Shown here piece after piece: positions 110 to 55,388 of a DNA stretch of 64,000 nt; position 1 is the stretch's first letter; every line of letters begins with the position of its first letter. Location: the NCBI GenBank assembly GCA_964479045.1, contig CAYZJI010000003.1, positions 95,483 through 159,482 on the forward strand, in the 5' to 3' direction. The position numbers and the translations under genes were made by a program. This DNA is from an uncultured Enterobacteriaceae bacterium. Its GTDB lineage: Bacteria > Pseudomonadota > Gammaproteobacteria > Eutrophobiales > Eutrophobiaceae. The notes under the pieces are model-generated. The model was not told where the DNA came from and did not search any database. It saw only the letters and a list, made by a program, of their open reading frames with translations.

Positions 110-2416
110 ATGCAGAATATTTTTAAAAAAGCAGTTTATATTTTTATCATGTTTCTGCTGCACTTAGGTGCTGTGCATGCCGCCGAAGAGTTTGTTATTG
201 AGGATATCCGGGTCGAAGGATTGCAACGCATTACCCCCGGTACAGTTTTTAACTACCTGCCCATGAAAGTGGGTGACACCTTTGATGATGCCCGATCCGC
301 CGAGGCCATCCGGGCCCTGTTCAAGACCGGTTTTTTCGATGATGTGCGACTGGAACGCGACGGGGGCATACTGGTATTTATCATCAAGGAACGGCCGGCC
401 ATCGGCACGATCACCCTGAATGGTAACAAGGAAATCAAGTCTGATGCATTGATCGATAGTTTGCGCCAGATTGGTTTTGCCGAGGGGCGTATTTTCAACC
501 AGTCACAACTGGACCGTCTGGAGCAGGAACTGCGGCGGCAGTATTTTTCACTCGGCAAATACGCGGTTGAAATCGAATCCACCGTAGACCCGCTGGATGA
601 CAACCGTGTAGCTGTGACGATCGATGTTTCCGAGGGGATCACCGCCAGGATCCGGCAGATCAATATTGTCGGCAATGATTCCTTTGATGAGGATGATTTG
701 CTGGATGAATTCGAACTTACCACGCCTACCATGTGGTCTTTTTTCACCAAGACCGATCAGTATTCCAAGGAAAAACTCGGTGCCGATCTGGAGGCGCTCA
801 GGTCATATTATCTTGATCACGGTTATATCAACTTCAACGTGGAATCAACCCAGGTTTCCATCACCCCGGACAAGAAAGATATTTATATCACCATCAATGT
901 GGTTGAAGGTGAACCGCATACAATATCAAGTGTGAAACTTGCGGGTGAATTTATTGTCCCGCAGGAAGATCTGTTCAAGGTGGTGGATGTCCGGCAGGGT
1001 GAAATGTTTTCACGCAAACGCCTGACCGGCACTACTGACGCGATTACCGATCTGCTGGGTAATGAAGGCTATGCTTTTGCAAACGTGAATGCAATTCCTG
1101 ATATCGACCGCGAAAACAAGACCGTTGCACTCACATTTTTTATTGACCCCGGCAAGCGTGCTTATGTACGCCGCATCAATTTCAGCGGGAACACCCGGAC
1201 CCGGGATGAAGTGCTACGCCGTGAAATGCGCCAACCCGAGGGAGGCTGGATTTCGACCCAGAAAGTGGAACGTGGAAAGGTGCGCCTGCAGCGGCTTGGA
1301 TACTTTACCGAGGTGAATGTTGAGACGCCCGCTGTGGCTGGCACTACCGATCAGGTGGATGTCAATTACAGCGTTACGGAAATGCAGTCTGGCCGGTTTC
1401 TGGCCGGCGTCGGTTTCTCCCAGAGTGCAGGTATTATCTTCCAGACCAGCCTCTCCCAGGACAACTTTCTTGGTAGCGGTAAGCGTGTTTCACTGGAATT
1501 CAATAATAGCGATGTCAACCGGCGTTTTGGCCTTGGATATACCAATCCTTACTGGACAGTGGATGGTGTGAGTCGTGGATTCAGCGGGTTCTACCGGGAA
1601 ACGGACGCGTTTGATGCCAACGTGACAGCGTTTGACTCTACCGTTTTCGGAGGCGGGGTCAATTTCGGTATTCCATTGACCGAATTCAATTCTCTGCAAA
1701 GCTCAATGCACTATGAAAACACCCAGATCGAGAGAACGTTCCGTGTTTCCAAAGAAGTGCGCGACTTTCTTCGTGAAAATGACGATCAATACGATATCAT
1801 GAGGTTCTCCAATCGTTTTACCTACGACACCCGTAACAAGGCTATTTTCCCGGATGAAGGCCTGTTGCATGCGATTGAAGCAGAGGTTGGTATACCGTTT
1901 GTCGGGAATTCACTGGAGTTCTACAAGATCGATTACAAAACACAGTGGTTTACCAATTTCCTTGAAGATTATATTGTGACTCTGAAGGGTAATGTAGGTT
2001 ATGGCGATGCCTACTCCGATACGACCGAGTACCCGTTTTTTGAAAACTTTTATGCTGGTGGTCCTCGCTCGGTGCGTGGTTATGAAGACAATACCCTTGG
2101 GGTGCTCGATTCAAGAGGCAGACCGCTGGGCGGAAATGTCAAGCTTACGGCTGGAGCGGAAATATTTTTGCCCATCCCGTTCTTCAAGGACATCAAGTCT
2201 GTGCGGATTTCGGGATTTTTTGATGCTGGCAATGTCTATAACACCAGTGTCAAGGACGAGGACATTGATTTGGGACTGTTGCGTTATTCTGCCGGTATAA
2301 GTGGCGTTTGGGTGTCGCCTTTTGGTATAGTGTCCGTCAGCGTGGCCGCCCCGTTTGGTGACGAAGACACGGATCAGCTACAACCGTTCCAGTTTACATT
2401 TGGTTCATCTTTCTAG
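110..2416 (+). CDS. bamA: Outer membrane protein assembly factor BamA (Omp85)
   Basis: 768 aa with a signal peptide, POTRA-like N-terminus and a C-terminal beta-barrel ending in aromatic residues. Conserved rseP-bamA-skp-lpxD synteny. Confidence 0.95.
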   Translation: MQNIFKKAVYIFIMFLLHLGAVHAAEEFVIEDIRVEGLQRITPGTVFNYLPMKVGDTFDDARSAEAIRALFKTGFFDDVRLERDGGILVFIIKERPAIGTITLNGNKEIKSDALIDSLRQIGFAEGRIFNQSQLDRLEQELRRQYFSLGKYAVEIESTVDPLDDNRVAVTIDVSEGITARIRQINIVGNDSFDEDDLLDEFELTTPTMWSFFTKTDQYSKEKLGADLEALRSYYLDHGYINFNVESTQVSITPDKKDIYITINVVEGEPHTISSVKLAGEFIVPQEDLFKVVDVRQGEMFSRKRLTGTTDAITDLLGNEGYAFANVNAIPDIDRENKTVALTFFIDPGKRAYVRRINFSGNTRTRDEVLRREMRQPEGGWISTQKVERGKVRLQRLGYFTEVNVETPAVAGTTDQVDVNYSVTEMQSGRFLAGVGFSQSAGIIFQTSLSQDNFLGSGKRVSLEFNNSDVNRRFGLGYTNPYWTVDGVSRGFSGFYRETDAFDANVTAFDSTVFGGGVNFGIPLTEFNSLQSSMHYENTQIERTFRVSKEVRDFLRENDDQYDIMRFSNRFTYDTRNKAIFPDEGLLHAIEAEVGIPFVGNSLEFYKIDYKTQWFTNFLEDYIVTLKGNVGYGDAYSDTTEYPFFENFYAGGPRSVRGYEDNTLGVLDSRGRPLGGNVKLTAGAEIFLPIPFFKDIKSVRISGFFDAGNVYNTSVKDEDIDLGLLRYSAGISGVWVSPFGIVSVSVAAPFGDEDTDQLQPFQFTFGSSF

Positions 2417-17654: not shown

Positions 17655-18245
17655 CTACTCCCGGATGATGACCTTGGTGCCGATGGCCACATACTCCCTG
17701 AGTTCATTGATTTGCTGATTGGTCAGGGCAATGCATCCATTGGTCCAGTTGATGTCCGGGTGTATGTCGAGTTTTTCCTCTGTTTCTTCACCCAGACCAT
17801 GTATACCAATGTAGCCTCCAAGGGGCGTGTCTTGGGGAGGTTTTTGTTTGGACTTGAAGGCCTGGGCAATTTGCTTGAATTCCGATGCTGAGATGATGTT
17901 GTTTTTATAGCCATACCATGCATCCAGCAGGTTGGGATAGTCCAGCTGCATGAAGTAATGAAACTGGCTGTTGTCCTTGAAGTCGATGATTTTATAGACA
18001 CCGACAGGAGTTTTCTTGTCACCCAGTTGCCGTTTCGTACCATCACCACCCTTGCCGGTGGCAATACGGTACTGTTTGATCACATGCTCACCCTTGAGAA
18101 CAGCGAGCTCCTGTTTTGATTTGAAAATGATGATGTCGTAACCATCATCCAGTGCGTAACTCATATTGCAGAGCAATATGAGAATCAGGCCAGTGCAGAC
18201 CTGAAAATAATTAATGGTAGCTGTCCGGGAACCGGCATTATTCAT
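17655..18245 (-). CDS. L,D-transpeptidase (YkuD family)
   Basis: N-terminal membrane anchor. Catalytic region GIHGLG...NWTNGCIALTN (His/Cys motif of YkuD). Confidence 0.7.
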   Translation of the reverse strand: MNNAGSRTATINYFQVCTGLILILLCNMSYALDDGYDIIIFKSKQELAVLKGEHVIKQYRIATGKGGDGTKRQLGDKKTPVGVYKIIDFKDNSQFHYFMQLDYPNLLDAWYGYKNNIISASEFKQIAQAFKSKQKPPQDTPLGGYIGIHGLGEETEEKLDIHPDINWTNGCIALTNQQINELREYVAIGTKVIIRE

Positions 18246-18354
18246 ATTGTTGTACAGACGCAGTGATGAGCTACTGCATTCTATACAGAATTTATCTGCT
18301 TAGAAACGGGATGACAGAGGGATTGAATCCGGAACGGCCACGTGAATCAGGAGA

Positions 18355-18392
18355 GGGTAAAAAAATAAAGGGCCATATGGCCCTTTATTCTG
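18355..18392 (-). terminator. Rho-independent terminator downstream of pqqA
   Basis: Minus-strand hairpin AAAGGGCC-ATAT-GGCCCTTT followed by ATTTTTTT. Confidence 0.6.
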
Positions 18393-18414
18393 CTAGCTTG
18401 TAAGTCTCAGTACA

Positions 18415-18489
18415 TTACTTGTTGTTGATGTACATGGTGACTTCGAAGCCGAAACGGATGTCGCTATACTCAGGTGTAGTCCACTTCAT
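18415..18489 (-). CDS. pqqA: PQQ precursor peptide PqqA (24 aa: MKWTTPEYSDIRFGFEVTMYINNK)
   Basis: Minus-strand ORF not in the six-frame track because it is so short. It has the PqqA signature W-x-x-P and the E-x-x-x-Y cross-link pair inside FGFEVTMY. RBS GAGGAG lies 8 nt upstream. It has its own terminator. Confidence 0.85.
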   Translation of the reverse strand: MKWTTPEYSDIRFGFEVTMYINNK

Positions 18490-18558
18490 GGTAGTCTCCT
18501 CGTTAAGATTGAAGTTCAAGTCTTTGTAGCGGGAATGATCCAGCTACGCCTTAACTTT

Positions 18559-18574
18559 TGCAGAATCCGTGCCA
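18559..18574 (-). promoter_or_regulatory. Putative sigma-54 (-24/-12) promoter upstream of pqqA
   Basis: Minus-strand sequence TGGCAC-GGATT-CTGCA, with GG and GC spaced exactly as in the consensus TGGCAC-N5-TTGCA. It lies about 70 nt upstream of the pqqA ATG. Confidence 0.5.
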
Positions 18575-18749
18575 GTCATGTCTGCATACTGGGCAACATG
18601 AAAATATTTATATAAATCAATAAATTATTAATACAGCATCAAATATACAAGTCTCCTCTTCAGTCACCCGTAAAGCCAGTTTGGCTCTTCCAACCCAGAT
18701 TTTTGGTCTATATGAACCAACTGGTGTATGGGCTATACTCCGGCGGACT

Positions 18750-20222
18750 ATGTGGATACGGCGACCCAAATCATTGAGAAATCTGCTGATCATCCACGAG
18801 GTGGCGTTTGTCCTGCTGGTGGCGGTCACCGGTCTGCTGGGCGGGCTTTCCGCCTACTTCTGGCAGCAGTATTCCGCAGAATCTGAACGCATCAACAACC
18901 TGATATTTGGCATAGAGCAGATCCGCGGCGCTCTGTTCCGCCAGATCCAGGAGGCCATCCGGGCCCGCCTGCTGGAGGACGTCGGTGCCTTGGAACTGTA
19001 TGGCGAGTATTCCCGGACCATCGACCAGCAATTCAACCAACTCCGGCAGAATTCGAAATCCACGGATGAGGACATGGCCACCCAGGACCTGCAGGCGTCC
19101 TACCGGGAAATCCAGAAAGACATGAACAAGATTTTTACGGACCCCTACATGGTGAGCCGCACCGTGCGTATGAAAATTCTCGATCCGCGTTTTGCCCAGA
19201 GCATGGTGGGCAAGTTTGAGGGCGAGTATGAAGAGATGCGCTCCCTGTTGATGGCACAACATGACCAGCTCAATCAGGTTTTGCAGCGCTGGACGAGTTA
19301 TGCGCCGGCCATCATTCTTATACCGCTGATCCTCGCGATTGTCCTTGTGCTTTATACCCGCCATCTGATGAGCCGTGAATTTGTCGAGCCGATGTCCGCG
19401 GTAATGCAGGGCGCCGGTCATATCAGCCGTGGGAAACTGGAACACAAGATTCCTTCATATGGTGTGGAAGAAGTATCGCAACTCGCGCAAACCATCAACC
19501 ATATGGCCGGTGAACTGGAAGCCAGCCGTTCCGCTCTGGTGGAAAGTGAACGGCAGGCAGCGTTGGGTGCGTTGGTGCCGGTGGTCGCCCATAACATCCG
19601 CAATCCGTTGGCAAGCATACGGGCCACGGCGCAGGTACTGGATGATGTCGAGAACAAGGAGGAACTGCAGGAAGGCAAACAGGCCATACTGGAAACCATC
19701 GATCGACTGGGTCGCTGGGTGAATGCACTGGTGTCCTATCTGCATCCACTCAAGCCGAATTACCGGCTGGTGCATGCCAGCAAAATGATCGATGCGGCGC
19801 TGTCGTTGCTCAAACCCAAACTGGAAGAAAAAATGATCACTGTTGAAAAACAGGGATGGGAGCACGATGTACGCCTGAATGCCGATCCGGATTTGATGGA
19901 GCAGGCGTTGTATGCATTGCTGGCGAATGCGGCTGATGCTTCACCACCTCAATCCACTATTCAGATTGCAATGGAAAATCACGAAAATCATCTGTTGCTG
20001 CAAATACATGACAGTGGCCCCGGTTTGCCGTTTGATCCGAAACCGAATGAACTGGCGCCGGGTCCCAGCACCAAGCGCTTTGGTACCGGCCTCGGTATTC
20101 CGATTGCATTCAAGATTTGCCAGAAACATGGCTGGAAACTGGATTTCTCCAGTGCGCAGGGGCAGGGCACGGTCGCAAAAATCACCGCACCGATCAGAGT
20201 CATTGAGGAGATCAACGCATGA
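18750..20222 (+). CDS. Sensor histidine kinase (periplasmic sensor domain, HisKA + HATPase_c)
   Basis: H-box HNIRNPLASIRATAQ and G-boxes DSGPGLPF / GTGLGIPIA, with two TM helices flanking a periplasmic domain of about 150 aa. Start placed at the first ATG (18750); the ORF track begins at TTG 18681. Confidence 0.8.
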   Translation: MWIRRPKSLRNLLIIHEVAFVLLVAVTGLLGGLSAYFWQQYSAESERINNLIFGIEQIRGALFRQIQEAIRARLLEDVGALELYGEYSRTIDQQFNQLRQNSKSTDEDMATQDLQASYREIQKDMNKIFTDPYMVSRTVRMKILDPRFAQSMVGKFEGEYEEMRSLLMAQHDQLNQVLQRWTSYAPAIILIPLILAIVLVLYTRHLMSREFVEPMSAVMQGAGHISRGKLEHKIPSYGVEEVSQLAQTINHMAGELEASRSALVESERQAALGALVPVVAHNIRNPLASIRATAQVLDDVENKEELQEGKQAILETIDRLGRWVNALVSYLHPLKPNYRLVHASKMIDAALSLLKPKLEEKMITVEKQGWEHDVRLNADPDLMEQALYALLANAADASPPQSTIQIAMENHENHLLLQIHDSGPGLPFDPKPNELAPGPSTKRFGTGLGIPIAFKICQKHGWKLDFSSAQGQGTVAKITAPIRVIEEINA

Positions 20223-21640
20223 AACAGGACACTCACATCCCGCTGACGTCCATGACGGTCCCGGTCCTGGATAAACAAATCCTGATCATTGAGGATGAAG
20301 CGGTGTTTGCCCGCGCCGTGGAAAAACGGTTGAACCGGGCCGGTTATAAAACCCAGATTGCCGGTGATCTGAAAACTGCGGCAGAAAGATATGAAAGCTT
20401 CTCACCGGATCTGATTCTTCTGGATATGCGTTTACCGGATGGGTCCGGACTGGATTTTCTGGCGCAGCTGCGCACCAAACAGAATATCAATACAGCAGTG
20501 ATCGTCATGTCCGCCTATGGAGAACTGGAAGATGCCGTTTCGGCAATGAAACTCGGCGCGTCGGATTATCTGAAGAAGCCGGTAGACCTGGATGAGTTGC
20601 TGCTGAATGTGGAAAAGGTGCTCGACAAGAGCCAGCTCACCCAGAAACTGACCTATTCCACCAAGCGCGAACAACATGCCGCCGAAGGCGTAGAGTTTAT
20701 CGGTGAATGTGCAGCCATCGTTGCGATCCGGAACCAGGTGGATCAGATCTGCCGCCTCACTCGCGCGACCGATGCCATTCCACCCACAGTCATGATCCTG
20801 GGTGAAACCGGAACCGGCAAGGATGTGGTTGCACGTCTCCTGCACGCGCACAGCAAACGCAGTGATAAACCCTTCGTGCATGTGGATTGTGCGTCATTAC
20901 CGAAAGATTTGATCGAAGCAGAACTGTTCGGCCATGAAAAAGGCGCCTTCACCAATGCCCATGTTGCACGTACCGGTCTTATAGAGGCGGCTGAAGACGG
21001 TACCTTGTTCCTGGATGAAATCGGCGAACTGCCGCTGGACCTGCAATCGAAATTGCTCGCGGTGCTGGAACGCCGGACCTTGCGGCGTGTAGGCACCACA
21101 CAGGAGCGCCCTGTGGCAGCGTGGTTTGTTGCCGCAACCAACCGCAATATCGGTGAGCTCACACAGAAAGGCCAGTTCCGTTCGGATTTGTATTACCGGT
21201 TGAATGTATTGAACATTGCCATGCCGCCACTGCGCGAACGTGGCAAGGATATTTTATTACTGGCGAATCATTTTGCGCAGCAGACGGCGCGCCGTTATGG
21301 CTTGCGTAATACGCAATTCACATCGGATGCTGAACAGTCATTGATGGAATATGCATGGCCGGGCAACGTGCGTGAGATGCGGCATTTACTCGAACGTGTC
21401 GTGTTATTGAATGCCGGTGGTGAACTGAACAGTGGAATGCTGGGATTGCAACCCATCCAGTCCGCACTGAATGAACATACGCCGGCGGACATGGGCGATC
21501 TCACACTGAATGCCGCGGAACTGATGCTGATCAAACAGGCACTGGAGCGCACCAACGGGAATGTTTCAAAAGCGGCGCGCGAACTCGGTACTACGCGCAT
21601 GGCGTTGCGTTACCGCATGAAGAAATATAATTTGTCCTGA
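20219..21640 (+). CDS. Sigma-54-dependent response regulator (NtrC family: REC + AAA+ + HTH)
   Basis: Receiver domain, then Walker A GETGTGKD, GAFTNA and an ESELFGHEKGAFT-like sigma-54 interaction region, then a C-terminal Fis-type HTH. ATGA overlap with the kinase gene. Confidence 0.9.
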   Translation: MKQDTHIPLTSMTVPVLDKQILIIEDEAVFARAVEKRLNRAGYKTQIAGDLKTAAERYESFSPDLILLDMRLPDGSGLDFLAQLRTKQNINTAVIVMSAYGELEDAVSAMKLGASDYLKKPVDLDELLLNVEKVLDKSQLTQKLTYSTKREQHAAEGVEFIGECAAIVAIRNQVDQICRLTRATDAIPPTVMILGETGTGKDVVARLLHAHSKRSDKPFVHVDCASLPKDLIEAELFGHEKGAFTNAHVARTGLIEAAEDGTLFLDEIGELPLDLQSKLLAVLERRTLRRVGTTQERPVAAWFVAATNRNIGELTQKGQFRSDLYYRLNVLNIAMPPLRERGKDILLLANHFAQQTARRYGLRNTQFTSDAEQSLMEYAWPGNVREMRHLLERVVLLNAGGELNSGMLGLQPIQSALNEHTPADMGDLTLNAAELMLIKQALERTNGNVSKAARELGTTRMALRYRMKKYNLS

Positions 21641-24373: not shown

Positions 24374-25324
24374 ATATACCAAACTGATTTTATATCCTTT
24401 CTGTTCCAGCATTTTCAATAAACCTTTTTCATCCGGCAGATGGGATGCACCGATGGCGATGAATGCGCCGCCTTCCTGCAAATGGGGTTCAATGCGGTCC
24501 AGCATGCGTTGGTTGCGGCCGTAAAGGACCCCTTGCATGAAGCGCTGGAACACCGCTTCATCGTAATGCGGTTCTTCATTGAACAATACGATGCCGGCCA
24601 GATCACGGTTCACATACATGTCCACCAGATCGCGCGTCTTGCGGATGATCTCCTTATGGTTGCAAACCGTATCGTTCAGAATGATGATTTGATCAGCCAA
24701 CCCGATTTTATCCAGAACGCTGGTGAGCTCCTGCATGGTTTCAATTCCCGTCATGGGTTTGTTGGCCGTCATGGCGATCTGCATCAGCACATTTTCCTGG
24801 GTATCGGCCTGTACCGGACGTGGCCTCCCGATGATGCTGAAGGCGGCCCACGGTTTCAATTTGGCGAGTTTCTCCGGCGGTATGCCATACTCCGGGATGA
24901 TTTCTGAAAGTCGATGATAGATTTCCGGATCGAGCAGTGTATTCAGATCGGGTTGCGCCGGATCATAAACAGCCTCGTTGAATGTCGCAAAGGCTTCCGG
25001 CTCCAGCAGCACTTCCATGACCAGCCGTTTGCTTTGTACAAGGGCCAGCCGTACTTGCGGTGGCAGGGAAGTGACCTTCCGATCCTGTGAATGCATGGTG
25101 CCGAAGAGATATGATGGAGACTGACCGTTATCCCCCTCAATTTTCCATAACAAACCCTGTCCGTAAGGTATACTTTCCCGGGATCGTGGGGCAGGATCAA
25201 CCGGGCTCTCAGTCAGGGTATAATCCTGACACAGTGCGGGTTGCGGGGACCCCGTATCTGCTGCGAGGGTCTGGCTACCTGTGGCCAGTGTGACCAATAA
25301 TAATGAAAAGAATAATTTCAGCAT
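24371..25324 (-). CDS. TraB/GumN family periplasmic protein
   Basis: Signal peptide and the conserved YLFGTMH motif of the TraB/GumN/PrgY family. Confidence 0.65.
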   Translation of the reverse strand: MLKLFFSLLLVTLATGSQTLAADTGSPQPALCQDYTLTESPVDPAPRSRESIPYGQGLLWKIEGDNGQSPSYLFGTMHSQDRKVTSLPPQVRLALVQSKRLVMEVLLEPEAFATFNEAVYDPAQPDLNTLLDPEIYHRLSEIIPEYGIPPEKLAKLKPWAAFSIIGRPRPVQADTQENVLMQIAMTANKPMTGIETMQELTSVLDKIGLADQIIILNDTVCNHKEIIRKTRDLVDMYVNRDLAGIVLFNEEPHYDEAVFQRFMQGVLYGRNQRMLDRIEPHLQEGGAFIAIGASHLPDEKGLLKMLEQKGYKISLVY

Positions 25325-31255: not shown

Positions 31256-32518
31256 ATGAATATTCTGATCATTGATGATTCCAGGGATTTCCGCGCACTG
31301 GTGAGGTTGTATCTGTCCAAGCAGTTGAAGGACGCAAAGCTGGTGGAATATGACCTGGAAAAACTGGGAAAACCGGGCCCTGAATTCAGATGGTCTGATT
31401 ATTCCCTGTTACTTCTCGATTATAACCTCGGTGGTGGTCAGGACGGTTTTACCTGGCTGAAAGAATTTTCTTCACGTCCCGGTTTTCCACCAACCATCAT
31501 TCTCACGGCAGAGGGCGATGAATACATTGCAGTCAAAGCCATCAAGCTTGGTGCAGCGGATTATCTCAACAAGGTAGACGTCTCACCCAAACGGCTGGCG
31601 GAGGTCATCACCAGCGCTATCGAATTTACCGCTGAGAAAAAACAGGAACAGGCACAGGAAACTGCACGCGCTGAAGAACTGGTTGAAGAACTGCACAGGA
31701 AATCCACTAATACTGCCAAACGTGGGAATATTGACACCCTGTACAAATTCGTAAGGGTGATCGGACAGGGCGCATCATCCAAAGTCTATCTTGCTGAACG
31801 TCAGAGTGATCATCTTTCAATGGTGCTGAAGATACTGGAGATTAACAGCGCGACTACCGAGATTGCAGTTAAACGGTTTATTCGCGAAGCAGAACTGATT
31901 GCGGGACTGAACAGTCCCTTTGTGGTGAAGATCTATGATCATGGCATGACTGAAAACTACGGTTTCATCGCCATGGAATTTTTTTCACGTGGTGATCTGA
32001 AACAGCGCATGGAACTCCGCATCACTCCGGATGTTGCCATCAACTACATGACACACATTGCCTATGCACTGGATGCCATACATCGTATCGGGATTGTTCA
32101 TCGTGATCTGAAGCCGGCAAATATCATGTTTCGCGGTGATGACAGTCTGGCCCTTGCCGATTTTGGTATTTCCAAAAAACTGCAAACTTCCTCTGATCTC
32201 ACTACTCTTGGTCAGATTCTGGGTACCCCGCATTATATGAGTCCGGAGCAGGGCGAGGGCAAGAATATTGATCAACGTTCGGATATATACAGTGCCGGAG
32301 TTTTACTCTATGAACTGCTCACACGTGAGAAACCTTATACGGCTTCAACGCCGGCGGCATTGATCTACCAGCATGTCTATGCACCGATTCCGCAACTCGA
32401 AGGCGACTTGGCGAAGTATCAGGTACTGATTAACAAAACTTTGGCCAAACATCCGGATGATCGTTATTCGTCTGCTGCTGAATATATCGAGGCGCTTGAA
32501 TCTATTGCTAATGCGTAG
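31256..32518 (+). CDS. Response-regulator receiver domain fused to a Hanks-type Ser/Thr protein kinase
   Basis: REC: acidic pocket IIDDS, phospho-acceptor Asp in LLLLDYNLG, and Thr/Lys positions (ILTAEGD, AVKAIKLGAADYL). Kinase: HRDLKPANIM, DFGISK, GTPHYMSPE. Confidence 0.8.
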   Translation: MNILIIDDSRDFRALVRLYLSKQLKDAKLVEYDLEKLGKPGPEFRWSDYSLLLLDYNLGGGQDGFTWLKEFSSRPGFPPTIILTAEGDEYIAVKAIKLGAADYLNKVDVSPKRLAEVITSAIEFTAEKKQEQAQETARAEELVEELHRKSTNTAKRGNIDTLYKFVRVIGQGASSKVYLAERQSDHLSMVLKILEINSATTEIAVKRFIREAELIAGLNSPFVVKIYDHGMTENYGFIAMEFFSRGDLKQRMELRITPDVAINYMTHIAYALDAIHRIGIVHRDLKPANIMFRGDDSLALADFGISKKLQTSSDLTTLGQILGTPHYMSPEQGEGKNIDQRSDIYSAGVLLYELLTREKPYTASTPAALIYQHVYAPIPQLEGDLAKYQVLINKTLAKHPDDRYSSAAEYIEALESIANA

Positions 32519-37670: not shown

Positions 37671-39092
37671 ATGAATGACGACAGACATTTGAAAAGAAAG
37701 CCGGGGATGAGTCTCCGTTTTCGCCTGAACCTGTTTATCACCTTGTTGTTTCTGATGGTACTGGTCAGCGGCAGCATTTATGTGATTCACAATGCACGTC
37801 AGGCGGTCATGGATGAAGTCCGCGCCACGGCTTATCTTACCTTGCAGTTGATCAATATTGCCCTGTCCGACACAGCAGGCAGTAGTGATTCTGAACGGCA
37901 AAACCATGTACTGGAGCAGATTGCCGATCTTGAAAGTACACGGCACCTCAGTATTGAACTCTTCCGTACCCGGGATTCCTATCGCCGGGAACAGAGGGTA
38001 GCGGCGCAGGCGCCGGAAGAGACCCCTATCAATGCCAGTGCCCCGGGTTGGTTTGTAGAACTGGTCAAACCCTCAGCCATGGAATTCCGGCAGGTGGTTG
38101 ATACGCCAGGTGATACCTTTACGGAAATCCTGATTCGCGCCAATCCTTCTGATGAAATCACGGAAGTGTGGCGGGAAACCCGGGGCGTATTGACCCTGAT
38201 GCTGGTGTTTGTGCTGCTCGCCAATCTGCTGGTTTTCATTACGATAGGCTGGGGTCTTGCGCCACTCGAGAATATCCTGAAAGGACTGGAGGAAATTGAA
38301 CATGGTGATTACCGGTTCAGATTAGCGGCTTTTGATCTTCCGGAACTGTCGCGGCTTTCAGAAAAATTCAATCTGATGGCGGAGCGCCTGCACCGCAGCC
38401 GCGAGGAAAACCGTTATCTCACCCAACGTTCACTGGCCATACAGGAAGATGAACGGCGCCGTCTGGCGCATGAACTGCATGATGAATTGGGGCAGTCCAT
38501 CACCGCCATCAAGGCTGTTGCAGTGTCGATTGAAAAACAGTCCAGTACTGAACCTGAAGCCATCAGGGACAGTGCTGAGACCATCATCGAAGTATCAAAC
38601 CGCATGTATGATGTGGCGCGCAACATGATGCGCCGGCTGCGTCCCCTGTCCATGGATGAATTCGGTCTGATTACCGCACTCCAGGACATGATCGACGACT
38701 GGAATTCACGGCATCAGGATACGTTCTGCTATTTCAGTTTTGAAGGTGAAATGACGGGACTGGATGAAGAGATCAACATCAATCTTTACCGTATTGTGCA
38801 GGAAAGTCTGACCAATGTTGTCAAGCATGCGGATGCCAGCACAGTGAAGATAAACATTACTATTGTTGCGGACATGCTGGATGGGAAAAATTCACAATCC
38901 AGACATGTTATATTGATTATCGAAGACAATGGCCGTGGATTCGACAAGCTGCAACCGCGCCACGGCCTTGGGTTATTGGGTATGCGTGAACGGGTCGAGT
39001 CTTTGGGTGGTACTTTCACATTGAATTCCCGGCCCGGACACGGTGTCAAAATTGAAATACGAGTACCTTTGCAGGCTGAACAGAATCAATGA
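37671..39092 (+). CDS. Sensor histidine kinase, NarX/UhpB-like (HisKA_3)
   Basis: LAHELHDELGQSITAIK H-box, HATPase IEDNGRGF, two TM helices and a periplasmic sensor domain. Confidence 0.8.
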   Translation: MNDDRHLKRKPGMSLRFRLNLFITLLFLMVLVSGSIYVIHNARQAVMDEVRATAYLTLQLINIALSDTAGSSDSERQNHVLEQIADLESTRHLSIELFRTRDSYRREQRVAAQAPEETPINASAPGWFVELVKPSAMEFRQVVDTPGDTFTEILIRANPSDEITEVWRETRGVLTLMLVFVLLANLLVFITIGWGLAPLENILKGLEEIEHGDYRFRLAAFDLPELSRLSEKFNLMAERLHRSREENRYLTQRSLAIQEDERRRLAHELHDELGQSITAIKAVAVSIEKQSSTEPEAIRDSAETIIEVSNRMYDVARNMMRRLRPLSMDEFGLITALQDMIDDWNSRHQDTFCYFSFEGEMTGLDEEININLYRIVQESLTNVVKHADASTVKINITIVADMLDGKNSQSRHVILIIEDNGRGFDKLQPRHGLGLLGMRERVESLGGTFTLNSRPGHGVKIEIRVPLQAEQNQ

Positions 39093-39739
39093 CAGGTGAA
39101 AAACGCAAAATCAGGGTATTACTGGCGGATGATCATGCAGTAGTCCGCGCCGGTTACCGCATGTTGTTGCGTAATTCCGAAGATATCGAAGTCGTCGCAG
39201 AAGCAGATTCCGGCGAACGTGCCTGCAAGGCCTTTGCAGAATTACAGCCCGATGTCGTGGTCATGGATATCTCCATGCCGGGCATCGGCGGCCTCGAAGC
39301 AATACGCCGGATTGTTGCACGGGACGCCACTGCCAGAATTCTTGTGTTCAGCATGCATGACGATACAGTATTCGTGGAACAGGCCCTGCAGGCAGGTGCA
39401 CAGGGTTATCTGACCAAGAGCAGTGCGCCGGAAATCCTTGTGGAAGCGATCAAGGAACTGGCCAGTGGCAAGTCCCATATCGATTCAGAAATCGTACAGA
39501 AGCTGGCCTTTCAGAAAGCCCGCGGCAAGGACTCTCCATTTTCCAGTCTCTCGACCCGGGAGTTTGAAATTTTCTGTCTGTTGGCAGAAGGACTGAATAC
39601 CAGCGAAATCGCCAAACGTCTGTCACTCAGTTACAAAACCGTGGCCAACTACAGCACTCAGATCAAAACCAAACTGGATGTGACCACCGTCGCCGAGATT
39701 GCCCGCCTCGCGATCAGAAATAACATTATCAATGCGTGA
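39089..39739 (+). CDS. NarL/FixJ-family response regulator (REC + LuxR HTH)
   Basis: VLLADDH receiver, VVVMDISMPG, and a C-terminal LuxR-type HTH. Overlaps the kinase stop. Confidence 0.9.
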   Translation: MTGEKRKIRVLLADDHAVVRAGYRMLLRNSEDIEVVAEADSGERACKAFAELQPDVVVMDISMPGIGGLEAIRRIVARDATARILVFSMHDDTVFVEQALQAGAQGYLTKSSAPEILVEAIKELASGKSHIDSEIVQKLAFQKARGKDSPFSSLSTREFEIFCLLAEGLNTSEIAKRLSLSYKTVANYSTQIKTKLDVTTVAEIARLAIRNNIINA

Positions 39740-39756
39740 AACGGGATTCGTGAAGC

Positions 39757-39826
39757 GTGAAGCGTTGTAACGAAAAACGCTTCACCAGATACGCTTCACG
39801 AGACGATTAGCCTGTCGGCTAATCGT
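39757..39826. terminator. Two consecutive perfect hairpins between convergent genes (candidate bidirectional terminators)
   Basis: GTGAAGCGTT-GTAACGAAA-AACGCTTCAC and ACGATTAGCC-TGTC-GGCTAATCGT followed by TTTAC. The second hairpin overlaps the stop of the minus-strand YVTN gene. Confidence 0.4.
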
Positions 39827-40769
39827 TTACCACCACACCCCACGGGGCTTCACCGACCTTGATGGTTTTGATGACTTCATCCTTTTCGGTATCAATTACA
39901 GAAACCTGATTGTCCACGCCATCCGTGGTGTAGACCCGTTTGCCATCGCTGCTGACTGCAAGCCCCCAGACACGCTTGCCAACAGGAATTTTCTTTAATG
40001 TGGTCATGCTTTCAGTATCGATCACAAAGATACTGTTGGCGCGGCCACCAGCAACATAGATTTTCTTTTCATCTTTGCTCAGGCGCACATCCTTGGGTTT
40101 GGCGTTTGGATCATCCAGTTTCACGACCTTGATAATCTCGTGTTTATCCATGTCAATTTTTTTGACTTCACCACTGATTTCAGAGGTGGCATAGGCGATC
40201 TTGCTGTCGGCGGTGAATGTGGCATCACGTGGTCGTGCGCCCACCAGAATATTGGCAATGATGTTGTGTTCCGGCACGGCAATCACATGCAGCATGTTGC
40301 TGGATTCACTGGTGACCATGACTTTCTTGCCATCCGGTGATATCGCCACACCTTCCGGTTCCAGACCCACCTGAATCTCTATGATTTTCTCCCCGCTTTT
40401 GGGATTGAAAGCCGTGGCCAGCCCGGCATCTTCATTGGAGATATAAAGATTTCCGTTCGGATGTACTGCAAAGGTTTCCGGGTCGGAACCGGCATTGAAT
40501 TTACGTGCAACTTCCAGGGTTTTCGGATCAATCACGGCGACTGCGTCTTCGTCACCCAGCGCTACATAAACTTCACTGCCATCCGGTGCTACGCCGATGC
40601 CGCGCGGGCGTTTGCCGACGTTGATGTCTTTCTCGACTTCAAGGGTTTCCGGATTGATCACGCTGACCGTGTCGCTTTTTTCATTGGTCACAAATATCCG
40701 GTGACTGGGCTCAGCCATGACCGGTCCGGAGAGTAATATTCCGGCCATCAAAGTGTAAACATATTTCAT
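39819..40769 (-). CDS. YVTN-family beta-propeller repeat protein (periplasmic), PQQ-dehydrogenase-associated type
   Basis: Signal peptide and repeated beta-propeller blades of about 40 aa (VYVA..., IYVAGG...). Confidence 0.7.
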   Translation of the reverse strand: MKYVYTLMAGILLSGPVMAEPSHRIFVTNEKSDTVSVINPETLEVEKDINVGKRPRGIGVAPDGSEVYVALGDEDAVAVIDPKTLEVARKFNAGSDPETFAVHPNGNLYISNEDAGLATAFNPKSGEKIIEIQVGLEPEGVAISPDGKKVMVTSESSNMLHVIAVPEHNIIANILVGARPRDATFTADSKIAYATSEISGEVKKIDMDKHEIIKVVKLDDPNAKPKDVRLSKDEKKIYVAGGRANSIFVIDTESMTTLKKIPVGKRVWGLAVSSDGKRVYTTDGVDNQVSVIDTEKDEVIKTIKVGEAPWGVVVND

Positions 40770-40785
40770 TTGTGGTATCTCCTTA

Positions 40786-40841
40786 AGTGAATAAGTAACG
40801 AGTTATGAGTAATGAGTGACGAGAGATGAGTAACGAGTGAA
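40786..40841. repeat. Heptanucleotide tandem array (GAGTRAY) x8, followed at 40846-40876 by an inverted partial copy
   Basis: AGTGAAT AAGTAAC GAGTTAT GAGTAAT GAGTGAC GAGAGAT GAGTAAC GAGTGAA; then AACTCATCCCTCGTCACTCATTACT, which is the reverse complement of about 3.5 units. Together they form a long imperfect palindrome. Confidence 0.6.
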
Positions 40842-40871
40842 ATACATTAACTCATCCCTCGTCACTCATTA

Positions 40872-41684
40872 CTATTTGGCACATTCGATGTTGCCGAGCG
40901 TATCAAGTTCATTGGGCTTGACCACTCCCGCTACCGGGGCTTCGCCGACAATTTCATCGTTTTCGACGAGCAGCAGGATCTGACGTAACTGGCCCGTAGC
41001 ACGGAAGCTCATATCGGTCCCTTTCTGACCATCAAACACCAGATCATTTTTCAGAAAGGTGAGCAGCTTGCCGGCATCGGTAATTTTCTGGCGTGCTACC
41101 GTATCCGTGACCATTTTGATAGCCGCCCAGCCGGCCCATGAAGCGTCATCCATTTTGACGTCATTGGCTTTGCGGAAACGGTTATTCAGTTCACGCGCGG
41201 CATATTTCTCGAAAGACGCATGCCAGGCTTGTGCCACAGCTTTGGAATCAGCCGATTTTTTCCGCCATTGCTCTTCAGAATCCAGTTTCATCTGTTTGCT
41301 GGGTGGAACATGCAGGGCATTGGGCAGGCATAATGCACGCAGGCTGTCATCTTCAAGCGTGAGATTGAAAACAGCAACGTCCGGCAGTTTCTCGACCAGT
41401 TTGCGGTAGGCCTCCTGATCGACAGCAGCAAAAACCGCCAGATAACCGGCATAATCCCTGTCCAGGACATCTGCCGGATTGACAGTATCAAGCGTATACG
41501 TCTGTCCCAGAAATTTCCCCTGCAGATTTGCCTCACTGAGGCCTTGCTGGAGGCCGAGGTAACTGTGTGTTGCTTTGTCCCCGGCATAGATAAATTTGTA
41601 GTTCATGGGCTCGGTTTGTGCTGTTGCCGGCGCAAACACGTTGAATATTGCAATTATCAGATTGACAAATATTACTTTTTTCAT
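40872..41684 (-). CDS. Periplasmic substrate-binding-like protein, possibly MxaJ/MoxJ-type quinoprotein-dehydrogenase-associated
   Basis: Signal peptide MKKVIFVNLIIAIFNVFAPATA and a soluble domain of about 250 aa. Adjacent to the YVTN propeller gene as in PQQ-dehydrogenase clusters. ORF-track start 41858 rejected in favour of 41684 (or 41693). Confidence 0.4.
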   Translation of the reverse strand: MKKVIFVNLIIAIFNVFAPATAQTEPMNYKFIYAGDKATHSYLGLQQGLSEANLQGKFLGQTYTLDTVNPADVLDRDYAGYLAVFAAVDQEAYRKLVEKLPDVAVFNLTLEDDSLRALCLPNALHVPPSKQMKLDSEEQWRKKSADSKAVAQAWHASFEKYAARELNNRFRKANDVKMDDASWAGWAAIKMVTDTVARQKITDAGKLLTFLKNDLVFDGQKGTDMSFRATGQLRQILLLVENDEIVGEAPVAGVVKPNELDTLGNIECAK

Positions 41685-41992
41685 GAGCAGCATTCTCTCA
41701 AGATGAATATGAATTTGAGTATTTGATGTCCTGGAGCGCAGATTGTTCAAAATTCTCTTGAAATTGAACAGGTTGCCGTTAAGGTATGATTCAGGAAAAC
41801 AGCAGCCATCGGGAATAGTCCACGGACTCACCATGCCAACAGATGATAATGATAACAATCATCATCTGAATTGAAATAGGAATATTGCCCGAATCGGAAA
41901 ACCTTATTATCCTGTCAACATATATGAAATTTGTCTCATATATGACTTTAGCAAGCATATAATAATGAGTGAGTTTTGAGGGAGATGCCCAG

Positions 41993-42472
41993 ATGCTCAA
42001 ATCGCTGCAAATAGAACCTGAGAAGTGTACCGGTTGTTTACAATGTGAAATGGCCTGTTCCTATGAGGCCACCGGATTTTTCAACCCGGCCAAGTCCCGT
42101 ATCAAGATTTTTACCTTTCACGAAGAAGGCCGTTTCGTTCCCTACACCTGCACACAATGCTCCGAAGCCTGGTGCATGCATGCCTGCCCGGTGGAGGCGA
42201 TAGTCATCAACCAGTCCACGGGCGCCAAAGAAGTGCTCGCGGATGTCTGCGTCGGCTGCAAGGTCTGTACGATTGCCTGTCCGTTTGGCACAGTGAATTA
42301 CGATCAACAGACCAAGGTCGTTTATAAATGTGATCTATGCGGCGGAGATCCGGAGTGTGCAAAGGCCTGCCCGACACATGCGATTACCTATGTTGATGCG
42401 GACCATACTGGTCTTGAGCGTATGCGCGCTCATGCGGCAAAAAATCTACCACACGACAGTGCAAAGGCTTAG
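41993..42472 (+). CDS. Tetra-[4Fe-4S] ferredoxin-like subunit (AorA-like)
   Basis: Four CxxCxxCxxxCP cluster motifs. The RBS GAGGGAG is 8 nt upstream of ATG 41993; the ORF-track GTG 41969 is probably an extension. Confidence 0.75.
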   Translation: MLKSLQIEPEKCTGCLQCEMACSYEATGFFNPAKSRIKIFTFHEEGRFVPYTCTQCSEAWCMHACPVEAIVINQSTGAKEVLADVCVGCKVCTIACPFGTVNYDQQTKVVYKCDLCGGDPECAKACPTHAITYVDADHTGLERMRAHAAKNLPHDSAKA

Positions 42473-42486
42473 AGGAGGTTTGGACT

Positions 42487-44361
42487 ATGGCGTGGACAAG
42501 AAATGTAATGCGGGTGAACCTGACCAAGGGCACCATCAAGAACGAACCTCTCAATATGAAATGGGCCATGGATTACCTGGGCCAGAGAGGGTTGGCAACC
42601 AAATATCTGGTTGAAGAAATCGACCCCAAATGTGAGGCGTTGGGGCCGGACAATAAACTTATCATGACCACCGGGCCGCTCACAGGAACAATGGCCTCGA
42701 CTGGCGGGCGATATTCAGTAGTCACCAAAAGCCCATTGACGGGTGCGATTGCCTGTTCCAACTCCGGCGGATTCATCGGTAATGAAATCAAGAATGCCGG
42801 CTGGGACATGATCATTTTTGAAGGCAAATCACCCAAACCGGTTTATCTCTATATCGAAAATGAAAAAGCCGAGCTGTTGACAGCAGACGATCTATGGGGC
42901 AAATCTGTCTGGGAAGCGGATGAAATGCTCCACAAGAAACACCAGGATCCTTTATTACGTGTGGCGATCGTAGGGCGTTCCGCCGAGCAGGGTTGTCTTT
43001 ATGCAGCCATCATCAATGATATGCACCGTGCCGCCGGACGTTCCGGTGTGGGTACTGTCATGGCATCCAAGAATCTGAAAGCAATCGCTGTGCGTGGCAC
43101 CAAAGGTGTGGGCAATATCAAGGATCCGATCGCGTTTATCAAAGCTACGCAGGCAGGCAAAAAAGTACTCGCCGATAATGCGGTTACCGGGCAAGGTCTG
43201 CCCAAGCTTGGTACACAAGTGTTGATGAACGTGATTAATGAAATCGGTGCCATGCCGACGCGCAACATGCGTGAAGTCCAGTTTGAAGGTGCCAGCAAGA
43301 TTTCCGGTGAGGCCATGACTGAACCGCGTGCATCAGATGGCAAACCCAACCTGACCACCAATGGCGCGTGTTTTGGTTGTACGATTGCCTGCGGCCGTAT
43401 TTCAACCATTGATCGCACCCATTTTACCATCCAGAACAAACCCCAATACTGGGGCAATTCCGGTGGGCTGGAATATGAAGCGGCCTGGGCGCTGGGTTCA
43501 GATACCGGGGTTGATGATCTGGATGCGCTGACCTACGCCAACTTCCTGTGTAATGAAGATGGTTATGATCCAATTTCATTTGGCTCAACCGTTGCAGCGG
43601 CCATGGAGTTGTTTGAAACCGGTGCCATTACGACCAAAGAAACGGGTGGAATGGAACTGAAATTCGGATCCGCCAAAGCACTGGCATGGTGTGCTGAAGT
43701 TGTCGCGACCGGCGAAGGCTTTGGCAAGGACCTTGGACTCGGTTCAAAACGTCTGTGTGAAAAATATGGCAAGCCGGAATTTTCCATGACGGTGAAAGGC
43801 CAGGAATTCCCGGCTTACGATCCGCGTGGCATACAAGGCATGGGTCTCGCCTATGCCACTTCCAATCGTGGAGCCTGTCATTTGCGTGGCTATACCGTGG
43901 CTTCCGAAGTGCTCGGCATACCGGTTAAAACGGATCCACTGGTGACCGACGGCAAGGCAGAACTGGTCAAGGCATTTCAGGATGCAACGGCTGCGGTGGA
44001 CTCCACCGGCTTGTGTGTGTTTACGACGTTCGCCTGGACATTGGAGGATATTGCACCTCAGGTCAATGCTGCCTGCGAAGGCACCTGGACACCGGAAAAA
44101 ATGATGGAAGTTGGCGAACGTATCTGGAACATGGAACGTGATTTCAATATTGCGGCAGGGATCACCGGCAAGGATGATAATCTGCCCAAGCGTCTCGTCA
44201 AGGACATAAAAGCAGCGACAGGTCCGGCCAAGGGACGTTTGAATGATCTCGATAAAATGCTGCCGGAGTATTATCAGATACGGGGCTGGAGCAAAGAAGG
44301 TGTTCCGACTCCGGACACGCGCAAGCGTCTGGGCCTCAATCCCAAAGGCCTGGCGGCCTGA
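42487..44361 (+). CDS. Tungsten-containing aldehyde ferredoxin oxidoreductase (AOR family catalytic subunit, AorB-like)
   Basis: 624 aa, aligns end to end with Pyrococcus-type AOR (N-terminal MxxxWxRxxRVNL, GGRYxVVTKSPLTG, the Cys ligands for the cluster, and the EPxPxG region). Good RBS AGGAGG. Confidence 0.9.
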   Translation: MAWTRNVMRVNLTKGTIKNEPLNMKWAMDYLGQRGLATKYLVEEIDPKCEALGPDNKLIMTTGPLTGTMASTGGRYSVVTKSPLTGAIACSNSGGFIGNEIKNAGWDMIIFEGKSPKPVYLYIENEKAELLTADDLWGKSVWEADEMLHKKHQDPLLRVAIVGRSAEQGCLYAAIINDMHRAAGRSGVGTVMASKNLKAIAVRGTKGVGNIKDPIAFIKATQAGKKVLADNAVTGQGLPKLGTQVLMNVINEIGAMPTRNMREVQFEGASKISGEAMTEPRASDGKPNLTTNGACFGCTIACGRISTIDRTHFTIQNKPQYWGNSGGLEYEAAWALGSDTGVDDLDALTYANFLCNEDGYDPISFGSTVAAAMELFETGAITTKETGGMELKFGSAKALAWCAEVVATGEGFGKDLGLGSKRLCEKYGKPEFSMTVKGQEFPAYDPRGIQGMGLAYATSNRGACHLRGYTVASEVLGIPVKTDPLVTDGKAELVKAFQDATAAVDSTGLCVFTTFAWTLEDIAPQVNAACEGTWTPEKMMEVGERIWNMERDFNIAAGITGKDDNLPKRLVKDIKAATGPAKGRLNDLDKMLPEYYQIRGWSKEGVPTPDTRKRLGLNPKGLAA

Positions 44362-44375
44362 TCCGGGGGTAAATC

Positions 44376-45650
44376 ATGGAACACATCATCATCGGCGCCG
44401 GTCCGGCGGGCGTTATTGCGGCCGAAACCTTGCGCAAGGTTGATCCGGGTTCACGTGTCACGCTCATAGGCGATGAGCCCGAGCCCCCCTATTCACGCAT
44501 GGCATTACCTTATTACCTGATTGAAAAGATCAAGGAAGAGGGCACCTACCTGCGAAAAACCAGGACTCATTACGAGGACAAGGGTATTCGCCTCGTTCGC
44601 GATCGAGTCACACAAGTTGATCCCAAAAACAAAAAACTGAAACTGCAGAATGATGGTACGATCAGTTATGACCGGTTGCTTATTGCAACCGGATCACATC
44701 CCATACGTCCGCCCATTCCGGGCATGGATCTGCCGGGGGTGCATTCCTGCTGGACGCTGGAAGATGGCCGTGCCATAGCCAAAAAAGCAAAACCGGGTGC
44801 CACGGTTGTCCTGATGGGTGCAGGATTTATCGGCTGCATTATTCTCGAAGCGCTGGCATTGCGTGGAGTAAAGCTCACGGTGGTTGAAATGGGAGATCGC
44901 ATGGTGCCACGCATGATGAATCAGGCGGCCGGCAACATGATCAAGCGCTGGTGCCAGGAAAAAGGCGTCACCGTACATACCTCAACCAAGGTAGAGGCCA
45001 TTGAAAAAGGTGGCCTGACCGGTCGTGGCAAACTCAAGGTGAGTCTTGGCAATGGTGAAGTGATCAAGGCTGATTTGGTCATCTCCGCAACCGGTGTCAG
45101 ATCGAATATCCAGTTTCTGGAAGGCAGTGGTATCGGCACAGAGTTTGGTGTGCTGGTGAACGATCATTTGCAAAGCAATATTCCCGAAATCTATGCTGCA
45201 GGTGATGTTTGTCAGGGCAAGGATTTTTCTACAGGCGAATACAGTGTGCAGGCCATACAACCTACAGCCGCCGATCATGGCCGCGTTGCGGCAATGAACA
45301 TGGCGGGCAAAAAAACCATACATCAAGGCAGTGTGAACATGAACGTGCTGGATACCATGGGTCTCATATCCAGTTCCTATGGTTTGTGGATGGGTGTGGA
45401 TGGCGGGGACTCAGTAGAACTGAATGATCCCGCGCGTTATCGTTATCTCAGTCTGCAATTCCAAGATGATGTGCTGGTGGGCGCACAGGCGCTGGGCCTG
45501 ACCAATCATGTGGGTGTACTGCGTGGTCTCATTCAGACCAAATTGCATCTGGGCAAGTGGAAACATCATTTGATGAATGATCCAACCCGGTTGATGGAAG
45601 CTTATCTTGGTTCCACACAGTCGATTGGTCATAATGCGGGTGTGATTTAA
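44376..45650 (+). CDS. FAD-dependent pyridine-nucleotide-disulfide-oxidoreductase-family protein (AorC-like electron-transfer subunit)
   Basis: N-terminal IIGAGPAGV FAD fold and a second dinucleotide-binding GxGxxG (VVLMGAGFIG). Downstream of the AOR gene. Confidence 0.75.
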   Translation: MEHIIIGAGPAGVIAAETLRKVDPGSRVTLIGDEPEPPYSRMALPYYLIEKIKEEGTYLRKTRTHYEDKGIRLVRDRVTQVDPKNKKLKLQNDGTISYDRLLIATGSHPIRPPIPGMDLPGVHSCWTLEDGRAIAKKAKPGATVVLMGAGFIGCIILEALALRGVKLTVVEMGDRMVPRMMNQAAGNMIKRWCQEKGVTVHTSTKVEAIEKGGLTGRGKLKVSLGNGEVIKADLVISATGVRSNIQFLEGSGIGTEFGVLVNDHLQSNIPEIYAAGDVCQGKDFSTGEYSVQAIQPTAADHGRVAAMNMAGKKTIHQGSVNMNVLDTMGLISSSYGLWMGVDGGDSVELNDPARYRYLSLQFQDDVLVGAQALGLTNHVGVLRGLIQTKLHLGKWKHHLMNDPTRLMEAYLGSTQSIGHNAGVI

Positions 45651-55311: not shown

Positions 55312-55371
55312 GATTCGGATTACCTTTCCTCAATCTCGTACAGATGGATTTAATTAAGTCTGGCCTTATTG

Positions 55372-55388
55372 AGCGAATTCCATGCCAG
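55372..55388 (-). promoter_or_regulatory. Weak candidate sigma-54 promoter upstream of pqqB
   Basis: Minus-strand CTGGCAT-GGAAT-TCGCT: the GG/GC spacing is correct and the -24 element is good, but there is a mismatch at -14. About 60 nt upstream of the pqqB ATG. Confidence 0.3.

Follow-up and report, generated by a model that had tools for sequence, protein, structure and literature searches.

We analysed a stretch of 64,000 nucleotides (the window) of contig CAYZJI010000003.1, from the assembly GCA_964479045.1 of an uncultured Enterobacteriaceae bacterium, in which a short gene for PqqA, the precursor peptide of the cofactor pyrroloquinoline quinone (PQQ), lies next to divergent genes for a sensor kinase and an NtrC-type regulator and far from pqqBCDE (Table 1). 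An earlier, sequence-only reading had taken the 24-codon open reading frame (ORF) for a textbook PqqA with the E-x-x-x-Y motif, and the family models agree: the peptide scored 43.8 bits against a cut-off of 21.1 for PF08042 and 46.8 against 20 for the NCBIfam model TIGR02107, with Glu16 and Tyr20 of FGFEVTMY as the PqqA cross-link pair. The ORF is a genuine, solitary and monocistronic PqqA precursor gene, and conversion of its product to PQQ is predicted. As had also been claimed, no second pqqA-like ORF lies in the 278 bp 5' of pqqB (55312..55589), nor was one found in the rest of the window.

The expression signals described for this gene in the sequence-only reading were all present. Purine tracts of the GAGGA/GGAGA type occupy the position of its GAGGAG ribosome-binding site (RBS) in all aligned relatives. 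The strong hairpin that follows the gene has 13 pairs (18391..18362), with the U-run directly after it, and the 81-nt stretch that contains it (18420..18340) folds with a minimum free energy of -20.1 kcal/mol (z = -2.6). All 12 relatives keep this hairpin, with paired changes in the stem such as GGGGTC/GACCCC, GGGGCG/CGCCCC and GGGGCTG/CAGCCCC. A simple terminator scan of 18200..18800 left the hairpin unflagged, which we ascribe to a limitation of the scanner, because folding and covariation reveal a terminator.

Upstream of pqqA lies a sigma-54-type -24/-12 element with its GG and GC doublets exactly 10 bp apart, at about the 70 nt distance first noted for it, from which a transcription start near 18548 and a 5' untranslated region of about 59 nt are predicted. 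The motif alone is weak evidence, because the window has 9 sequences within one mismatch of the sigma-54 consensus where 3.7 would be expected; it rises above chance because it is conserved in relatives. The promoter scan of 18200..18800 found no sigma-70-type promoter and no -35/-10 pair.

The sequence-only reading had suggested looking upstream of this element for a palindromic upstream activating sequence (UAS), and alignment of related intergenic regions revealed two dyads. The centre of dyad 1 is 138 bp upstream of the pqqA -24 GG and also just upstream of the putative -10 box of the kinase operon. To our knowledge its pattern, TGGTT-N6-AACCA, matches no described binding site. A second, weaker dyad of the form TGG-N10-CCA lies 22 bp away, centre to centre; its TGG...CCA ends are kept in most of ten aligned relatives, with TGG changed to TGA or CGG in three. 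From the dyads to the promoter runs an AT-rich spacer with a predicted site for integration host factor (IHF) that reads TAA-N4-TTGATT, the reverse complement of WATCAANNNNTTR, which we take to be the IHF consensus. A dyad more than 100 bp upstream, an AT-rich or IHF-like spacer and a -24/-12 element make up the standard layout of an enhancer-dependent promoter.

On the kinase side, TATACT is found 5-12 nt before the kinase ATG at equivalent positions of the related loci L001-L011, and most relatives also keep the minus-strand block around it, GAGTATAAC. This ATG has no visible Shine-Dalgarno sequence before it, and the kinase/regulator mRNA may be leaderless or nearly so. We also looked at an rpfG RNA as a candidate over the promoter region and rejected it, as the Rfam match was below threshold (18.7 against 75.9 bits, E = 0.14).

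Table 1 Genes and sequence elements of the pqqA and pqqBCDE loci, by position in the window
Feature	Coordinates	Strand	Remarks
pqqA, PQQ precursor peptide gene	18489..18415	-	24 codons; translation MKWTTPEYSDIRFGFEVTMYINNK; stop TAA 18417..18415
Intrinsic terminator of pqqA	18391..18358	-	hairpin AGAAUAAAGGGCC / GGCCCUUUAUUUU, U-run
RBS of pqqA	18501..18496	-	GAGGAG, 6 nt before ATG
Sigma-54-type -24/-12 element of pqqA	18574..18559	-	TGGCACGGATTCTGCA; GG 18573/18572, GC 18561/18560; last base 70 nt from ATG
IHF-like site of pqqA	18627..18615	-	TAATTTATTGATT; dyads on one side, promoter on the other; predicted
Second dyad	18697..18682	-	TGGGTTGGAAGAGCCA
Dyad 1	18719..18704	-	TGGTTCATATAGACCA; 16 bp; candidate UAS for NtrC-type activator; protein binding predicted
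TATACT	18733..18738	+	possible sigma-70 -10 box, about 11 nt before kinase ATG
Sensor histidine kinase gene	18750..20222	+	HAMP, HisKA, HATPase_c; divergent from pqqA; ATG 18750 conserved in relatives
NtrC-family response regulator gene	20219..21640	+	REC, AAA+ Sigma54_activat, HTH_8; start overlaps kinase stop by 4 nt
Dyad upstream of pqqB	55522..55507	-	TGGTTGATTTCAACCA; perfect, dyad-1 half-sites
IHF-like site upstream of pqqB	55451..55439	-	TAATGTATTGATT; predicted
Sigma-54-type element of pqqB	55387..55372	-	TGGCATGGAATTCGCT; TGGCAT-N5-TCGCT; first base 76 nt before ATG
pqqB	55311..54397	-	passes NCBIfam equivalog cut-off
pqqC	54380..53652	-	passes NCBIfam equivalog cut-off
pqqD	53655..53362	-	between pqqC and pqqE; in-frame TAA 53568..53566
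pqqE	~53402..52236	-	passes NCBIfam equivalog cut-off

The divergent neighbours are, as first described, a sensor kinase and a sigma-54-dependent type of activator. The periplasmic domain of the kinase, about 145 aa between two transmembrane helices, is all-helical and has many charged and aromatic residues that are invariant, and an AlphaFold model is helical throughout the sensor, with a predicted local distance difference test score of 85-93. A fold search with this model returned matches to the cytoplasmic kinase core only and thus gave no clue to the ligand. The regulator matched PF00072 (2.5e-27), PF00158 (4.1e-62) and PF02954 (3e-14), and an alignment of 10 orthologues revealed the acid pocket, a Walker A motif (GETGTGKD), a Walker B motif (LFLDEIGE) and a predicted acceptor, Asp69, in LLD69MRLPDG. 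Its scores for NCBIfam equivalogs fell far below the cut-offs (AtoC, 376 against 714; NtrC, 362 against 559; LuxO and ZraR likewise), and it is thus not an orthologue of any named system.

Conserved blocks upstream of pqqA and pqqB

To see whether pqqA is solitary beside this pair in relatives as well, a comparison that the sequence-only reading had proposed, we scanned genomes with the kinase and obtained 11 loci, all from metagenome-assembled genomes (MAGs) of uncultured Gammaproteobacteria, with kinase identities of 59-79%; a further locus with a kinase homologue, from "marine bacterium B5-7", was added. A near-identical pqqA is divergent from the kinase in 10 of the 11 loci and in B5-7, giving near-identical PqqA peptides at the same position in 11 related loci; in locus L008, pqqA is an MRFGF variant within a long ORF. 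In an alignment of the intergenic regions, most positions were scrambled and the flanking DNA was unalignable, but discrete blocks survived, namely the -24/-12 element (TGGCAY-N5-NTGC), both dyads, the IHF-like site, TATACT and the terminator. Motif counts in the 12 pqqA-kinase intergenic regions, set against 1000 shuffles, placed dyad 1 in 12 of 12 (shuffle mean 0.012), the -24/-12 element TGGCAY-N5-NTG in 11 (0.155), with a TCGC variant, TGGCATGGCTTTCGCA, in the twelfth (L008), and the IHF-like site in 8 (0.62). The distance from the dyad centre to the -24 GG ranged from 115 to 152 bp across these regions.

In relatives, pqqA, kinase and regulator remain linked while the DNA around the three varies: insertions of cytochrome b561, an ABC transporter or a PQQ-dependent dehydrogenase occur in one flank, and the other may have or lack NDH-2. 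Insertions and rearrangements affect the YkuD-pqqA interval and the region beyond the regulator, and never the interval between pqqA and the kinase. In one locus (L010, 4700..5620), pqqA is gone, a cytochrome b561 gene abuts the spot and two ORFs stand in place of the kinase gene, which has been split, with the dyad and a TGGCACGAAATTCGCC element persisting as a remnant.

The same set of elements stands upstream of pqqB, 36 kb from pqqA. A perfect dyad with the half-sites of dyad 1, a pattern expected 0.29 times in the whole window, is followed by an IHF-like site, a sigma-54-type element, an RBS and the ATG at 55311, the same order as at pqqA; blocks similar to this IHF-like site recur in related loci as TATTGATTT / ATTGTTTTA. 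A third dyad-like match in the window (25272..25287) lies inside a TraB-family ORF with no sigma-54 element nearby, and no target with both dyad and sigma-54 element was found in the window besides pqqA and pqqB.

A metagenome scan with PqqB yielded 80 loci, about 30 of which share the synteny of the window (DUF6513, DUF447 and MfnB genes divergent from pqqB; PqqB at least 73% identical), and no pqqA adjoins pqqB in these. Essentially all syntenic loci with enough upstream sequence carry TGGCAY-N5-TCGCW upstream of pqqB, 50-130 nt from the gene and further where repeats are inserted. The TGGTT-N6-AACCA dyad begins about 135-180 bp beyond this element, across an AT-rich, IHF-like spacer. In three other loci (L018, L023 and L036), this promoter leads into pqqA, with pqqB after it, a linked form that is probably ancestral, and more distant loci have a canonical pqqA-pqqB pair without these motifs. 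In four loci (L012, L016, L020 and L066), GC-rich palindromic insertions of about 150-350 bp, resembling repetitive extragenic palindromes (REP) or miniature inverted-repeat transposable elements (MITE), lie between the sigma-54 element and pqqB and displace the promoter to 237-434 nt from the ATG.

Scanning the composite dyad-plus-sigma-54 pattern over 629 kb (the window and related loci) gave 43 occurrences: 24 before pqqB, 15 before pqqA, 1 at the L010 remnant that has lost pqqA, 1 at a pqqB site unmatched by the regular expression (L034) and 2 chance reverse reads of the palindrome (L092 and L093). This distribution makes the motif set specific to PQQ biosynthesis genes. It also bears on the proposal of the sequence-only reading that a dedicated, enhancer-dependent promoter supplies the precursor uncoupled from pqqBCDE. 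The enhancer-dependent part is favoured by a solitary pqqA with a conserved -24/-12 element, dyad and IHF-like site. The uncoupling was not supported: the two loci are physically separate, but pqqB has the same layout, which recurs in 24 related loci, so pqqA and pqqBCDE look co-regulated.

Beyond this clade, a high-GC lineage with PqqB 60% identical carries TGGCATGCTCTCTGCR about 128 nt upstream of a pqqB-linked pqqA (L090, ~529..544; L091, ~773..788), with a conserved GTCGCAGATTTTGCGGTA block further upstream. The TGGCATGCTCTCTGCR sequence may be an independent sigma-54-type pqqA promoter, in which case sigma-54 control of pqq genes may be wider.

A candidate PQQ regulon and its alternatives

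We favour the reading that pqqA and pqqBCDE form one PQQ regulon driven in a sigma-54-dependent way by the adjoining kinase/NtrC-type pair, and give it a probability of roughly two in three. Under this model, the membrane kinase would sense a periplasmic signal through its helical-bundle domain and phosphorylate the regulator, probably on Asp69. The regulator would then bind the TGGTT-N6-AACCA dyads, which precede the sigma-54 promoters of pqqA and pqqB by about 115-150 bp. Looping of the DNA with the help of IHF would place the regulator at the closed sigma-54 complex, which ATP hydrolysis would open. The products would be a short, terminator-bounded pqqA mRNA with a strong RBS and, induced in parallel, pqqBCDE. 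Because the pqqA mRNA ends at a strong terminator, the peptide could be expressed far above the enzymes, and the separation of pqqA from the operon fits its role because the peptide is consumed stoichiometrically, one per PQQ made. The dyad at the promoter of the kinase operon itself suggests autoregulation. The analysis establishes the identity of the genes and the presence, conservation and specificity of the motifs. Dependence on sigma-54, the pairing of activator and dyad, the use of IHF, the acceptor residue and the signal are the parts of this model that we infer; the choice of the adjoining activator is suggested by its adjacency and by the dyad in its own promoter region.

Several observations weigh against this reading. 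The L1 loop of the regulator is GAFTNA, not the canonical GAFTGA; the loops of its orthologues read GAFT[N/D/S/H]A or GAYTNA, so that only the fifth position varies apart from F/Y. In favour of the regulator, GAFTDA and GAFTHA are listed as functional L1 variants in D. vulgaris enhancer-binding proteins (PMC4641369); a literature search on such proteins did not turn up GAFTNA itself. The genes rpoN and ihfAB are not in the window, and the -12 element is degenerate in two relatives (L009, ATGAT; L093, CTGGA), without C or GC. One relative (L011) has a gene for a 661-aa PQQ-dependent dehydrogenase (PF01011; 2705..4690, plus strand) between cytochrome b561 and pqqA, upstream of which no dyad or sigma-54 element was found, so the regulon may be limited to biosynthesis genes. 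The relatives are all uncultured MAGs or metagenome contigs. The synteny around the pair and the state of pqqD count on the same side and bear on the first two alternatives below.

One alternative is that the sigma-54 promoters are real but are served by another enhancer-binding protein, the adjoining pair being next to pqqA only through synteny. Adjacency is weaker evidence than it appears, because the whole neighbourhood is syntenic across the clade: the order of the genes for a VWA/FHA protein, a MotA-like protein, DUF302, YkuD and NDH-2 is conserved on both sides in most related loci. Proximity is also not required, as pqqB has the same dyad 36 kb from the regulator, and the promoter-pqqA-pqqB units of L018, L023 and L036 have no regulator within the DNA examined. 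Against this, the junction of pqqA and kinase is never interrupted despite insertions on both outer sides, the dyad overlaps the promoter region of the kinase operon, as expected under autoregulation, and the window holds no other dyad-plus-sigma-54 target. Where pqqA has been lost, in L010, the kinase also looks disrupted, and we count this loss in step for the adjoining pair as the activator. On balance, we consider service by another activator unlikely.

A second alternative concerns pqqD. Its in-frame TAA replaces a Tyr/His/Phe codon that is conserved in relatives (..QNC[H/Y/F]V[IVL]LYPEG..), conserved residues nearby are altered (QWEE to QSEE and V[IVL]LY to VEHY), and the match to the PqqD model is confined to the C-terminal 60 aa. 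The gene may thus be a pseudogene or carry a sequence error, and PQQ synthesis may be broken in this genome; the pathway would then be decaying, with a PqqA peptide that is never cross-linked and a regulatory apparatus that is a relic. Yet the rest of the system is intact and of full length (pqqA, pqqB, pqqC and pqqE, the two promoters with their dyads, and the kinase and regulator), a single-base change from TAY to TAA could be a MAG sequencing or assembly error, and a second pqqD could lie elsewhere, as does pqqD-II in P. putida (PMC12997753). Decay of this kind, which seems to us quite improbable, would apply to a single genome and is no rival to a mechanism proposed for the clade.

It is very improbable that the TGGCAY-N5-YGC block is some other conserved element, for instance one that binds a repressor or belongs to a sigma-70 promoter, with the housekeeping sigma factor transcribing pqqA: the frequency of one-mismatch matches in the window, the missing -12 GC in two relatives and studied pqqA promoters elsewhere, which are not reported as sigma-54 dependent (PMC3615186, PMC12997753), speak for it, but amid sequence that cannot be aligned the GG-N10-GC/TG spacing is exact in 12 regions before pqqA and about 30 before pqqB, the block always has the orientation of the coding strand and a distance of 50-130 nt to the gene or to an inserted repeat, the dyad is always 115-165 bp upstream across an AT-rich or IHF-like spacer, 18200..18800 holds no -35/-10 pair, and a sigma-54 activator is encoded next door.

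If one sigma-54-dependent regulon does join pqqA and pqqBCDE, a "solitary" pqqA need not mean regulation separate from the rest of the pathway, and the split of pqqA would be explained by the difference between a stoichiometric substrate and catalytic enzymes. In dozens of environmental genomes, both pqqA and the enzyme operon are marked by the set of dyad, IHF-like site and -24/-12 element, which points to one sensor/activator pair. The resulting model of the regulon is testable and applies to an abundant clade of uncultured methylotrophs. The promoter/regulator set is small and portable and could be rebuilt in a laboratory host. A bolder version of the regulon model, which we regard as distinctly unlikely, would make the pair a dedicated PQQ master switch in a clade of gammaproteobacterial methylotrophs, from marine and groundwater sources, that is widespread and wholly uncultured, and would make this the first sigma-54 enhancer-dependent PQQ regulon described, with the sensor directly reading cofactor demand (for example free periplasmic PQQ, apo-quinoprotein or lanthanide/calcium status) in a feedback loop on a ribosomally made precursor.

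Relation to known systems and neighbouring genes

The gene and its solitary placement have precedents. The canonical pqqABCDE(F/G) operons of Klebsiella, Pseudomonas and Methylorubrum have the same gene set and the E-x3-Y core of PqqA, and pqqB, pqqC and pqqE of the window match the equivalogs; by comparison, pqqA of the window has its own promoter and terminator at a distance from pqqB, and the promoters are of the sigma-54 type with a distant enhancer. The Pseudomonas pqq operon has been attributed to the LuxR-type regulator AgmR (PMC12997753). In methylotrophs, pqqA is likewise found solitary, often unannotated and far from pqqBCDE: in Methylosinus trichosporium OB3b, expression of a solitary pqqA is tens of times higher than that of the enzyme genes (PMC3615186), and Methylophilaceae have 3-12 pqqA copies (PMC4109929). 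The Methylosinus pqqA promoters were described as sigma-70-like (PMC3615186), and these two reports describe no sigma-54 promoter, adjacent two-component system or enhancer motif shared with pqqB.

In architecture, the closest likeness is to promoters of the NtrB/NtrC-glnAp2 type (and those of ZraSR and AtoSC), which share the combination of a kinase with a REC-AAA+-HTH_8 regulator, tandem dyads more than 100 bp upstream, an IHF-type bend and GG-N10-GC. The closest NCBIfam and PDB matches of the regulator are AtoC, NtrC, LuxO and Aquifex NtrC1/NtrC4. The pair described here differs from these systems in its GAFTNA loop, in having a cofactor-precursor peptide gene as its putative target and in lacking a named orthologue.

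Two-component systems that influence mxa and pqq expression in methylotrophs are MxbDM, MxcQE and MoxXY/MxaY. Their regulators are members of the OmpR or LuxR/NarL families that work through sigma-70 promoters, whereas the neighbour of pqqA is NtrC-type and its kinase has a different sensor domain. More generally, control of PQQ supply is poorly understood beyond a few models, in which it is attributed to LuxR- or OmpR-type regulators at ordinary promoters. A search of the full-text literature for sigma-54, rpoN, NtrC or enhancer-binding-protein control of pqqA or PQQ biosynthesis returned incidental co-mentions only, and we could not find such control of pqq genes described.

A pair of the MoxY type is also present in the window, as a MoxY-like kinase and a LuxR-type regulator (37671..39739). 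The kinase is of the MoxY/LapD periplasmic type (HisKA_3), and this pair with its LuxR/NarL-type regulator adjoins a YNCE-like beta-propeller protein and a cluster of 4Fe-4S ferredoxin, aldehyde:ferredoxin oxidoreductase and FAD-reductase genes (37671..45650).

Divergent from pqqB (55590..58356, plus strand) are genes for a protein with DUF6513 and dihydropteroate-synthase-like regions, for DUF447 and for 4-(hydroxymethyl)-2-furancarboxaldehyde-phosphate synthase (MfnB). These belong to tetrahydromethanopterin/methanofuran-type pathways, and their retention in synteny in about 30 metagenomic loci indicates a methylotrophic lifestyle. At the other end of the operon, a DUF559 endonuclease-like gene (51742..52155, plus strand) lies between folP and the end of pqqE. 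Elsewhere in the window, a gene at 31256..32518 (plus strand) encodes a REC domain fused to a Ser/Thr protein kinase domain.

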